A DNA stretch of 40,637 nt, from IMG/VR virus record IMGVR_UViG_3300037470_000973, positions 1 through 40,637 of that record, one strand, 5' to 3'. Shown here piece by piece: positions 25,920-27,990 of this stretch. Each line of letters opens with the position of its first letter. Within the stretch, counting starts at the first letter, position 1. The notes beneath the pieces are model-generated. The model worked only from the letters and a program-made list of their open reading frames with translations, was not told the origin of the DNA and did no database searches. The position numbers were made by a program, and so were the translations under genes. This DNA comes from a virus (lineage: Duplodnaviria > Caudoviricetes).

Positions 25920-26573
25920 TCACCTGCTAGATCGCAGAGTGCGGTCGAGCTCGTCGAGTCGCTCACCAGAGGGCAGGTCGGGCTCGACAAGTAGACCTTG
26001 CTCCTGCGCGGCGGGCAGCACACGGTCGAGGCGCAGCACCGAGCGGATGGATCTACCGTCGAGCTCGGGCGCAACGCCCAGCTCACCCACGCTGAACGCG
26101 CGCACCTTCGTCGCCGTCTCGTGCACACGCGTCGCAACCGGCTGGAGCGGCGCCTGCCCAAAGTCGAACGTGGTCCACTCTTTGGCTTCGGCAGCGCACA
26201 CGACACTCACGTGCGCATCGGTGGTGTCTTGCCGGTCCCAGGTGACCAAGATGTCGCCAGGCCACACACCATCCAGGCTGCTGGCGAGTCGGTTCGACCC
26301 AACAGGCGGCCGCACGAGGCGCGCAACCGCAACCAGGCGCGCGAACCCCTTGTGCTCGTCGCGGTTGATCCAATCACAGCGCACACCGAGTCGGTACAGC
26401 ATCCAGTGGGCAAGATCCGCGCAGCTCGAATAGATGGGGCCCGGGTCGCGCCACTCGGTGACCCAGCTGTACACCGGATCGTCGACGGTGCGCCCTTGGC
26501 CTACCGCCCAGCGGCACCACGTGAGCGCCCACTCGCGATAGTGCTCGATGGGATGAGGCAGCGTCAGCGACAT
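25920..26573 (-). CDS. Putative CHAP/NlpC-P60-like cysteine peptidase (candidate endolysin)
   Basis: YSSCADLAHWML...WPGDILVTW...DAHVSVV Cys/His pattern; start reassigned to ATG 26573. Confidence 0.6.
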   Translation of the reverse strand: MSLTLPHPIEHYREWALTWCRWAVGQGRTVDDPVYSWVTEWRDPGPIYSSCADLAHWMLYRLGVRCDWINRDEHKGFARLVAVARLVRPPVGSNRLASSLDGVWPGDILVTWDRQDTTDAHVSVVCAAEAKEWTTFDFGQAPLQPVATRVHETATKVRAFSVGELGVAPELDGRSIRSVLRLDRVLPAAQEQGLLVEPDLPSGERLDELDRTLRSSR

Positions 26574-26881
26574 TGTAGCGCCTCGCTGCAGCTGTCGGCG
26601 TGAACCAAGCACTCGACGTCATCACGCGTGAACCCGCTGACCTCGGCAACCTCGGTGTTGCGGTACGTCCACTGGCAATCCTGCGCGCACTCTTCGACGG
26701 AGCCCACTGCATCAGGCACACACTCGGCAATGCGAGCACACCACGGGTGGCACAGGTCCACGGGTGATCGCGGCTCGCAACCAGCCGCCCACCACATGAG
26801 CAATGCGACGCAGATGATGAGCAGCGCCAGCAGACAAACGGTGCGGATCGTCCCTGGGGGGAAACACCAGATGCCGTACAT
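26564..26881 (-). CDS. Cys-rich membrane-anchored protein / putative lipoprotein
   Basis: Hydrophobic segment ending AAGC, then CHPWCARIAEC...EECAQDC...ECLVHADSCSEALQC; start ATG 26881. Confidence 0.65.
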   Translation of the reverse strand: MYGIWCFPPGTIRTVCLLALLIICVALLMWWAAGCEPRSPVDLCHPWCARIAECVPDAVGSVEECAQDCQWTYRNTEVAEVSGFTRDDVECLVHADSCSEALQCR

Positions 26882-26883
26882 GG

Positions 26884-27675
26884 TCAACCAACCCTTTCGA
26901 TGTAGTAAGCGCTCTTCGCCTGAGCGAGCAGACCGAAGCTGGCCCACTGAAAGCCGCCGTCACCCCACGTCGCGCCCCAGCTGTTGCCGATGAGCCCCTG
27001 GTGCTCGCCGTCGTGGTAGCGCCAGTCGATGACGCCGCACAGGTGCCAACCGCTCGTTGGTTCTTGCGGTGGGATGACGCCGCGCCCCGCCCCGAACTCC
27101 AAGCCCACCGGCAACGCGACGAGGCAGTACTGCTCCAGGTGCAGCGAATGCAGCACGCGCTGCATCAGTCGGTCACCCGTGGCCAGGATGCGCTTGCACT
27201 CGATGGGCAGACGCCCGCGCCAGTAGCGACCGTTGGCAGCGAGGGCGGCACGCTTCAGACCGAAGGGCTCTTCGTTGACGTACAGAAACTGCCCCGTGCG
27301 GTCGAGCGTGTAGCTGGGCCACAGCTCTTCGGTGCACGCACCGAGGCGGTTCCAAGCCCAGACCGCATCCGACACCTTTGCGCCCTCGTCCTCGATGCGA
27401 GGACCGTCGCGGCGCACCCGTGCCGGCGTGTAGATCGAAAACGCGCTCAGGTCCGGCGCCATCATGCCGGCGAGCGAAGCCATCACGGTTGCCCCTTTGA
27501 CCAACCCGAAGCCAGTGCACGCGTTGACGTACTGCTTCCACACTTGCCCGTAGTGCGCACGGAAGGGCGGGTGATGCGACGGAGTCCACGAGGACCCCAC
27601 GCGTCGCGATCGCAGCGCAGAGCCGACGCGTTGGGAAGCGCTGGGTGCCTCGTGGATGTAGCCAGTCTTGTACAT
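26884..27675 (-). CDS. Papain-family (C1) cysteine peptidase
   Basis: Q..NACTGFG (catalytic Cys), GWHLCGV (His), LIGNSWGATWGDGGF (Asn), plus DEGA and GACTEELWPS motifs typical of bacterial C1A. Confidence 0.85.
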   Translation of the reverse strand: MYKTGYIHEAPSASQRVGSALRSRRVGSSWTPSHHPPFRAHYGQVWKQYVNACTGFGLVKGATVMASLAGMMAPDLSAFSIYTPARVRRDGPRIEDEGAKVSDAVWAWNRLGACTEELWPSYTLDRTGQFLYVNEEPFGLKRAALAANGRYWRGRLPIECKRILATGDRLMQRVLHSLHLEQYCLVALPVGLEFGAGRGVIPPQEPTSGWHLCGVIDWRYHDGEHQGLIGNSWGATWGDGGFQWASFGLLAQAKSAYYIERVG

Positions 27676-27684
27676 GCGCAGTGA

Positions 27685-27990
27685 TCAGTGCGTGGTGGGC
27701 ACAGGCAAGGTAGACACAGGGTCGCCATGACTTGCTGCCTCAGCCGCCTCGAGCGCCAGCTGCGGGTTGGTGCGGCAGGCGGTCCGATACGCAAGCCGCT
27801 CCTCTTCGGTTTTCGTGAGCCCCTCGGCGTCCACCAGATCCAAGTACGCATCGCACAGCTCGTCACGAGCATCGAGCACGTTGCGCCAATCCTTGGGCGT
27901 GCAGGCCACGAGCGCCGCGTAGGCACCGACTAGCGTTGCGAGCGTGATGAGGAACTTTCGACTGGTGAATCGCTTGATGATGTCTTGCAT
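27685..27990 (-). CDS. Putative lipoprotein with a holin-like N-terminus
   Basis: MQDIIKRFTSRKFLITLATLVGAYAALVA-C; SRKF motif and lipobox LVAC; GGAG Shine-Dalgarno; start ATG 27990. Confidence 0.6.
   Translation of the reverse strand: MQDIIKRFTSRKFLITLATLVGAYAALVACTPKDWRNVLDARDELCDAYLDLVDAEGLTKTEEERLAYRTACRTNPQLALEAAEAASHGDPVSTLPVPTTH

Follow-up and report, generated by a model that had tools for sequence, protein, structure and literature searches.

How does a Mu-like prophage lyse its host when no lysis gene of a usual type can be recognized in it? The question is raised by a viral record of 40,637 bp (IMG/VR record IMGVR_UViG_3300037470_000973; hereafter the window, that is, the whole stretch of DNA that was analysed), which holds a complete Mu-like prophage. 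In this prophage, four small genes lie between the gene of the large terminase (TerL) and that of the portal, two genes that are adjacent in Mu. They encode the putative SRKF lipoprotein, a papain-like C1 peptidase, a putative Cys-rich lipoprotein and a CHAP-like enzyme. A preliminary description of the locus proposed that they form the lysis system, as two pairs each made of a lipoprotein and a peptidase, and that this system may be undescribed. A lysis module is indeed the most likely interpretation, because the CHAP-like enzyme is the sole catalytic candidate for a wall hydrolase that was found and because relatives of three of the four genes occur in lysis-type neighbourhoods; the four genes are probably a lysis cassette that has moved between terminase and portal, as a mosaic of separate modules. 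The proposed pairing did not hold, since the Cys-rich lipoprotein accompanies the C1 peptidase from locus to locus. As to novelty, the CHAP-like enzyme belongs, if divergently, to an endolysin superfamily that is already known, and what is new is the uncharacterised accessory formed by the C1 peptidase and its lipoprotein, whose action on the envelope is a proposal. We argue from what was directly observed, namely which genes are present, their catalytic residues, the fold that is predicted and the neighbourhoods in which the genes occur.

From TerL (28001-29512, which matches Terminase_6N and phrog_2) to the Mu-type portal (24428-25915, Portal_Mu, E 2e-85), the genes code for the SRKF lipoprotein (27685-27990, 101 residues, lipobox LVAC at C30 and two more cysteines), a short xylellain-like C1A papain peptidase (26884-27675, 263 residues), a Cys-rich lipoprotein (26564-26881, 105 residues, 12 cysteines, lipobox AAGC at C35) and a divergent enzyme of predicted CHAP/NlpC-P60 fold (25920-26573, 217 residues). 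All six genes are on the minus strand and the successive junctions are gaps of 10, 9 and 2 nucleotides, an overlap of 10 and a gap of 4 nucleotides, which confirms that the four genes are tightly packed and co-oriented; both lipoboxes were identified by pattern. None of the four proteins has a match in Pfam or PHROGs (E 0.01) or in NCBIfam (E 0.1). The C1, Cys-rich and CHAP-like genes are backed by homologues, while the indications that the SRKF frame is a gene are a Shine-Dalgarno site and a match of its N-terminus. A repeat search gave nothing of note at the cassette, which is unbroken in one public contig that is possibly the same DNA as the window.

The absence of the usual lysis genes was only in part correctly described. 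Pfam searches on 65 + 30 translations and PHROGs searches on 65 gave no family match to a lysozyme, a transglycosylase, an amidase or a holin, and the position upstream of gp25, which is the usual slot of lysis genes in Mu, is indeed occupied by a regulator, an opposite-strand sigma70-r4 gene (Pfam). What had been overlooked is the first gene of the late operon (30357-30674, minus strand), which encodes a DUF2730 protein (PF10805, 32.8 bits for a cut-off of 24.9), that is, a member of the family of the Mu releasin gp25; it also has a weak Rz-like PHROG match (E 0.003). Wall-related matches in Pfam are limited to peptidoglycan-binding domains of the baseplate hub protein, and the endolysin matches of PHROGs fall on the same stretch.

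The CHAP-like enzyme as a candidate endolysin

The CHAP-like protein has 26 homologues (identity 34-52%). Its residues C51, D107 and H121 are invariant in all 27 sequences of the family and G106 is conserved in at least 90% of them, which bears out the earlier assignment to the Cys-His peptidases of the CHAP/NlpC type. In the CHAP and NlpC/P60 families, which PMC10318531 places among wall enzymes and for which it gives the GD motif, the Cys likewise comes before the His and the first strand bears the GD. The AlphaFold model (predicted local distance difference test, pLDDT, 91) matches best the phage lysin Ly7917 (PDB 5D74, Z 11.0, rmsd 3.0, 133 aligned residues), then other lysins such as PlyGRCS (8H1I, Z 10.2) and LysIME-EF1 (6IST, Z 9.8); 26 chains reach Z >= 8 and the top ones are nearly all CHAP or NlpC/P60 proteins. 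Foldseek agrees, with weak E-values, and a search of the PDB with the sequences of the family returned nothing meaningful.

We fetched 32 loci that contain a member of this family, 31 of which are distinct. In 6 of these 31 loci the protein has a C-terminal PG_binding_1 domain above the cut-off, and in another case it is fused to a GH25 muramidase. A gene for an LL-H holin precedes the CHAP-like gene in locus L027, and many of the viral copies come after genes for tail proteins and for small membrane proteins or lipoproteins. Because the model resembles lysins and relatives are fused to peptidoglycan-binding or GH25 domains, the CHAP-like gene probably codes for an endolysin, which is likely to be cytoplasmic. 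The window protein itself has neither a signal nor a peptidoglycan-binding domain, and its N-terminus, which is charged and whose highest hydropathy over 12 residues is 0.23, is not a signal-anchor-release (SAR) sequence of the type found in Mu gp22. The family is concentrated in Myxococcota and in uncultured phages; a tblastn search of 50,697 GenBank phage records gave no match to the window protein.

Two variations were seen around this enzyme. In L002 (5614-7239), the CHAP-like domain is part of a 541-residue protein encoded among structural genes, possibly a virion-associated form. In four distinct phage loci (L001, L009, L013 and L014), a gene for a trypsin-family protease stands just before the CHAP-like gene, and the protease of L013 bears a lipobox.

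A papain-like peptidase and its Cys-rich partner

The C1 peptidase has 8 close homologues (identity 36-56%). Q48, C53, H211 and N231 are invariant in all nine sequences, so that the catalytic set is intact, as first noted, and the start that gives 263 residues is supported as well. In a wider alignment of 20 sequences, Q, C and H are invariant and N is present in at least 90%. The window protein alone has no Pfam match at E 0.01, but a relative that is 52% identical passes the Peptidase_C1 cut-off (35 bits), and the profile of the family matches xylellain (PDB 3OIS, E 2.9e-9, positions 44-250). The window protein has no signal peptide, and the alignment of 20 shows no sign of one either. No member of the close clade turned up in the 401 genomes of the order that was searched (best E 3e-16; distant C1 proteins in 163 of them), a short C1 protein matched two records of GenBank phages, and scans with a single C1 protein and a single portal protein retrieved no viral loci.

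The Cys-rich protein has 5 homologues, in which the Cys of the lipobox and the eight mature Cys are invariant. AAGC is close to the lipobox consensus and C35 is invariant in 18 of 18 sequences. Its model is a small all-helical domain (pLDDT 89). The fold and profile comparisons suggested in the preliminary description gave lysins for the CHAP-like enzyme and xylellain for C1, and for this lipoprotein no meaningful match (best Z 5.3); the ESM Atlas returned only leads below 0.9 for the two small proteins, SRKF and Cys-rich.

The two close C1 relatives whose context is available are both directly followed by a close relative of the Cys-rich lipoprotein. In L040 the order is C1, Cys-rich lipoprotein (40% identity), GH25; in L033 the C1 and Cys-rich genes are followed about 1.1 kb further by an Amidase_2 gene. 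A broader Cys-rich subfamily can be aligned with the mature domain of the window protein (hhalign probability 79.5%, E 1.5e-5, with mixed results when single sequences are compared), which gives moderate support to a kinship between them. When both subfamilies are counted, a C1 gene lies within 250 bp at 13 of the 13 other distinct loci of Cys-rich lipoproteins, a count that may be biased, as the Cys-rich profile and motif were derived from members adjacent to C1. Six of these loci were reached via C1 or CHAP and seven without a C1 query, namely three of the six genome hits outside the profile and four in-frame cases among 13 matches to the DNA motif; the other nine motif matches, which were not in frame or belonged to unrelated genes, were discarded. 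The gene order is that of the window at 11 of the 13 loci. Conversely, 33 loci of distant C1 proteins have no Cys-rich lipoprotein in the DNA that was fetched.

What surrounds the pair suggests what it may do. A wall hydrolase of one of five classes is encoded within about 2 kb in 7 of the 11 phage-type loci: GH25 in L040 and L041/L090, Amidase_2 in L033 and L044, GH73 in L076, an Rv2525c-like protein in L082 (26.8 bits for a cut-off of 27.2), and both a CHAP-like and an M23 enzyme in L020. In L040, L044 and L082, as in the window, the hydrolase is the very next gene after the pair. Upstream, C1 is preceded by a lipoprotein or by a fusion of a membrane protein and a lipoprotein in 6 of the 9 phage-type loci for which upstream DNA is available, and in L075 the order is SRKL membrane gene, lipoprotein, C1, Cys-rich gene and portal. 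The recurring layout is therefore a lipoprotein, a C1 peptidase, a Cys-rich lipoprotein and an interchangeable endolysin. Since separate wall hydrolases of five classes occur near the pair, C1 more likely acts as an accessory than as an endolysin, as far as gene neighbourhoods can tell. Distant phage C1 proteins (L038 and L039) bear a lipobox of their own which, together with the trypsin-type proteases encoded beside CHAP-like genes, hints that such proteases act outside the cytoplasm.

Sister prophages and the probable role of the cassette

Four sister prophages (L003, L006, L008 and L024) have the same series gp25-gp26-gp27-TerL-portal as the window (TerL 54-56%, portal 39-42% identity). All four carry, in the late operon, a gene for a CHAP protein with a peptidoglycan-binding domain between gp27 and TerL, and all four encode a protein of 184-188 residues starting with SRKL between TerL and portal (L003:5253-5819, L006:8279-8839, L008:8220-8774, L024:9281-9847). 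By inspection, these SRKL proteins have two hydrophobic segments, followed by a second signal with a lipobox-like Cys and by a tail that contains Cys. The C1 and Cys-rich genes were not found in the 9-14 kb fetched from these four prophages. Because the sisters have lysis-type genes in the block but no C1 pair was found there, we conclude that the presence of lysis-type genes within the packaging block is a trait of the whole group and that the C1 pair of the window is an addition.

The SRKF protein may derive from such a gene. It has one hydrophobic segment, which ends in LVAC and fits the lipobox consensus given in PMC6139136, and its 22 N-terminal residues match the SRKL membrane proteins with 16.9 bits, when the best of 300 shuffles scores 5.3; no homologue was found in the length range 55-177 residues. 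SRKF would thus be a shortened form of the SRKL protein, in which the SRK helix has become a lipoprotein signal. With its single hydrophobic segment and no family match it does not qualify as a holin; its SRKL relatives match no holin family either, and when we call them holin-like this is our inference. Similar fusions of a small multi-pass membrane domain, an internal lipobox and a Cys-containing tail are seen in L001 (3834-4421), L044 (1824-2471) and L041 (2313-3050). Fusions of this kind might extend across the two membranes, or cleavage might yield a holin plus a lipoprotein.

Several observations weigh against a lysis cassette. Neither a spanin nor a holin was identified in the prophage. 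The CHAP-like protein of the window does not reach the cut-off of Pfam CHAP (PF05257), only 11 of the 27 sequences of its family match this profile at E 0.1, and weakly so (best 2.8e-5), NlpC/P60 folds score nearly as well as CHAP folds (Z 9.8), and about 6 of the 31 CHAP loci, judging from the neighbouring genes, resemble host chromosome rather than phage. The sister prophage L008 has an additional GH25 gene in the usual Mu slot. Last, the literature that was searched shows no role of C1A peptidases in the wall or the envelope.

Some of the evidence on the C1 pair would fit another explanation, which is the most serious competitor although we consider it clearly less probable: the CHAP-like enzyme would be the endolysin, and the C1-lipoprotein pair a passenger with no part in lysis, in which a protease comes with its inhibitor or anchor and modifies the surface of the lysogen (receptor removal, superinfection exclusion, predation or matrix remodelling). 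The pair is missing from the DNA fetched for all four sister prophages, and thus looks dispensable; no hydrolase was seen among the selected open reading frames scanned in 4 of the 11 phage-type loci (L075, L077, L079 and L080); and the two loci where the order of the pair is reversed are in host chromosomes, with no phage genes nearby, between a gene for a Ser/Thr kinase-ATPase and a GreA/B gene (G294:C8 ~72,100-73,200 and G401:C1 ~6,020,660-6,021,740). The tight association of an enzyme with a disulfide-rich lipoprotein may also be reminiscent of effector-immunity pairs. On the contrary, the pair is packed in the late operon of the window with junctions of 2-10 nucleotides, it directly precedes an endolysin in several unrelated phages, and a protease that has no signal peptide would not reach the lipoprotein in an intact lysogen.

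It is unlikely that C1 is itself a peptidoglycan hydrolase, working as a second endolysin alongside the CHAP-like enzyme. The papain fold, the intact catalytic residues and the lysis neighbourhood would be compatible with this function, but a separate wall hydrolase is present near 7 of the 11 phage-type loci, none of the short C1 proteins that were scanned matched a peptidoglycan-binding domain, and the relatives of known structure are xylellain and cathepsins.

The arrangement put forward in the preliminary description, in which SRKF/C1 and Cys-rich/CHAP are two pairs of one conserved four-gene system, is very improbable. A lipoprotein gene does precede C1 in most of the phage-type loci with upstream DNA, and L020 has relatives or analogues of all four genes, with the CHAP gene on the opposite strand. 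However, the full four-gene set, which it was proposed to seek in other phages, was recovered at no other locus; the Cys-rich lipoprotein accompanies C1 (13 of 13) and not the CHAP family, which occurs together with C1 in only 1 of 31 loci, where the C1 pair is on the opposite strand; and the comparison of SRKF with 10 lipoproteins of C1 or CHAP neighbourhoods gives no clear match, as 3 of 300 shuffles reach the full-length score and 9 of 300 that of the mature part. We give just as little credit to the idea that the peptidases are virion or head-assembly proteins: the position between terminase and portal, the L002 protein described above and the location of the pair just before the portal gene in L075 are in its favour, but the prophage already encodes a head protease (phrog_976), the enzymes are flanked by lipoproteins, and in many other phages these genes come after tail genes or before other lysins.

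If the four genes are a lysis cassette, they would be expressed late, judging from their position. The two lipoproteins would be exported, whereas the CHAP-like enzyme and C1, neither of which has a signal, would accumulate inside the cell. A lesion of the inner membrane, for which the DUF2730 and SRKF proteins are candidates, would then free both enzymes: the CHAP-like enzyme would reach the peptidoglycan and cut it, and C1, having escaped through this lesion too, would bind the Cys-rich partner anchored in the membrane and cleave envelope proteins, for example tethers between outer membrane and wall or a surface matrix, which is part of the job of spanins. We rate the chances that the C1/Cys-rich pair acts on the envelope during lysis as roughly even. 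Going further, and only tentatively, we suggest that myxobacterial phages replace spanins with proteolysis: a signal-less papain would be caught by a disulfide-rich lipoprotein, in a module that sits beside at least five classes of endolysins and that some host chromosomes have adopted.

The locus bears on the open question of how phages that have no spanin get through the outer envelope, and on lysis by myxobacterial phages, which is almost unstudied. It points to a divergent family of endolysins and to a compact two-gene module, protease and lipoprotein, that is open to expression. Should the C1 pair be only a passenger, there would still be a new subfamily of CHAP enzymes and an unusual order of genes.

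The prophage, its host and known lysis systems

The prophage is complete, as originally claimed: it extends from 7230 to 38728 (31,499 bp), with TG...CA ends and a 5-bp target duplication, and it sits in an RHS gene of the host. The left part of this gene (32-7234) has FG-GAP, RHS, SpvB and TcdB-middle domain matches; its right remnant (38734-39771) is an open frame of 345 codons with an HETAH motif. Searches in Pfam, PHROGs and NCBIfam identified a transposase, MuB, GemA, Mor, the DUF2730/gp26/gp27 series, terminase, portal, head and contractile tail genes. As for the host, a myxobacterium of the Polyangiaceae type is probable, because 9 of the 11 genome records that contain a CHAP-like relative are labelled Polyangiaceae or Myxococcota; one of these, L024, holds a sister prophage.

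Other features of the prophage deserve mention. A PG_binding_1 domain (E 4e-14) interrupts the baseplate hub protein (11027-12292). At the C-terminus of the Mu F (minor head) protein (23103-24359) is a PBECR2 nuclease-like domain, and the F proteins of the sister prophages are equally long. The place of the lysis genes of Mu is taken by the opposite-strand sigma70-r4 gene, in which there is a Cys motif, together with a single-pass membrane gene after the repressor (30764-31276 and 31256-31672). At the right end (37725-38653) are a helix-turn-helix gene and a gene with an ASCH domain.

Compared with CHAP endolysins (Ly7917, PlyGRCS, LysIME-EF1, LysK/LysGH15), the enzyme of the window has a similar predicted fold (Z 9-11) and the same Cys...GD...His order, and its relatives show the same modular fusions to wall-binding or muramidase domains; it differs in its sequence (identity 12-15%, below the Pfam CHAP profile) and in having no binding domain. 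The C1 peptidase shares the Q-C-H-N set, the NSWG motif and the lack of a signal peptide with xylellain and short bacterial C1A peptidases, from which it is distinguished by being phage-borne, among lysis genes, and coupled to the gene of a Cys-rich lipoprotein. In the literature that was searched (main texts, with most subscription journals outside the coverage), there is no report of a phage C1A-lipoprotein pair or of this CHAP family; a preprint on myxophages (10.64898/2026.09.14.751636) attributes lysis in one virus to a peptidase gene, and its main text mentions neither papain nor lipoprotein.

Spanins (Rz/Rz1, T1 gp11) are likewise small lipoproteins encoded beside the endolysin, according to PMC6139136, but the u-spanins described there have a C-terminal membrane segment and are free of periplasmic Cys, whereas SRKF and the Cys-rich protein have just one N-terminal hydrophobic segment each, with 2 and 8 mature Cys, respectively, and the surveyed o-spanins have at most 4 mature Cys, compared to 8 in the Cys-rich lipoprotein. 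No i-spanin gene was found next to either lipoprotein gene, and no spanin pair in the prophage.

The closest reference is Mu itself, whose lysis depends, according to PMC9239132, on the SAR endolysin gp22, the spanins gp23/23.1 and the releasin gp25, with no holin; gp25 belongs to the DUF2730 family and is required to free the SAR endolysin. Like Mu, the prophage of the window has a Mu-like backbone, a DUF2730 gene that opens the gp25-26-27-terminase block and no recognisable holin; unlike Mu, it has an endolysin candidate with no SAR-like N-terminus. In five Mu-like prophages (the window, L003, L006, L008 and L024) the DUF2730 gene is upstream of a probable non-SAR endolysin, whereas PMC9239132 reports a downstream position for it. 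The window therefore provides an instance of what the same source lists as an untested case: a DUF2730 protein in a Mu-like phage whose probable endolysin is encoded downstream and is not of the SAR type.

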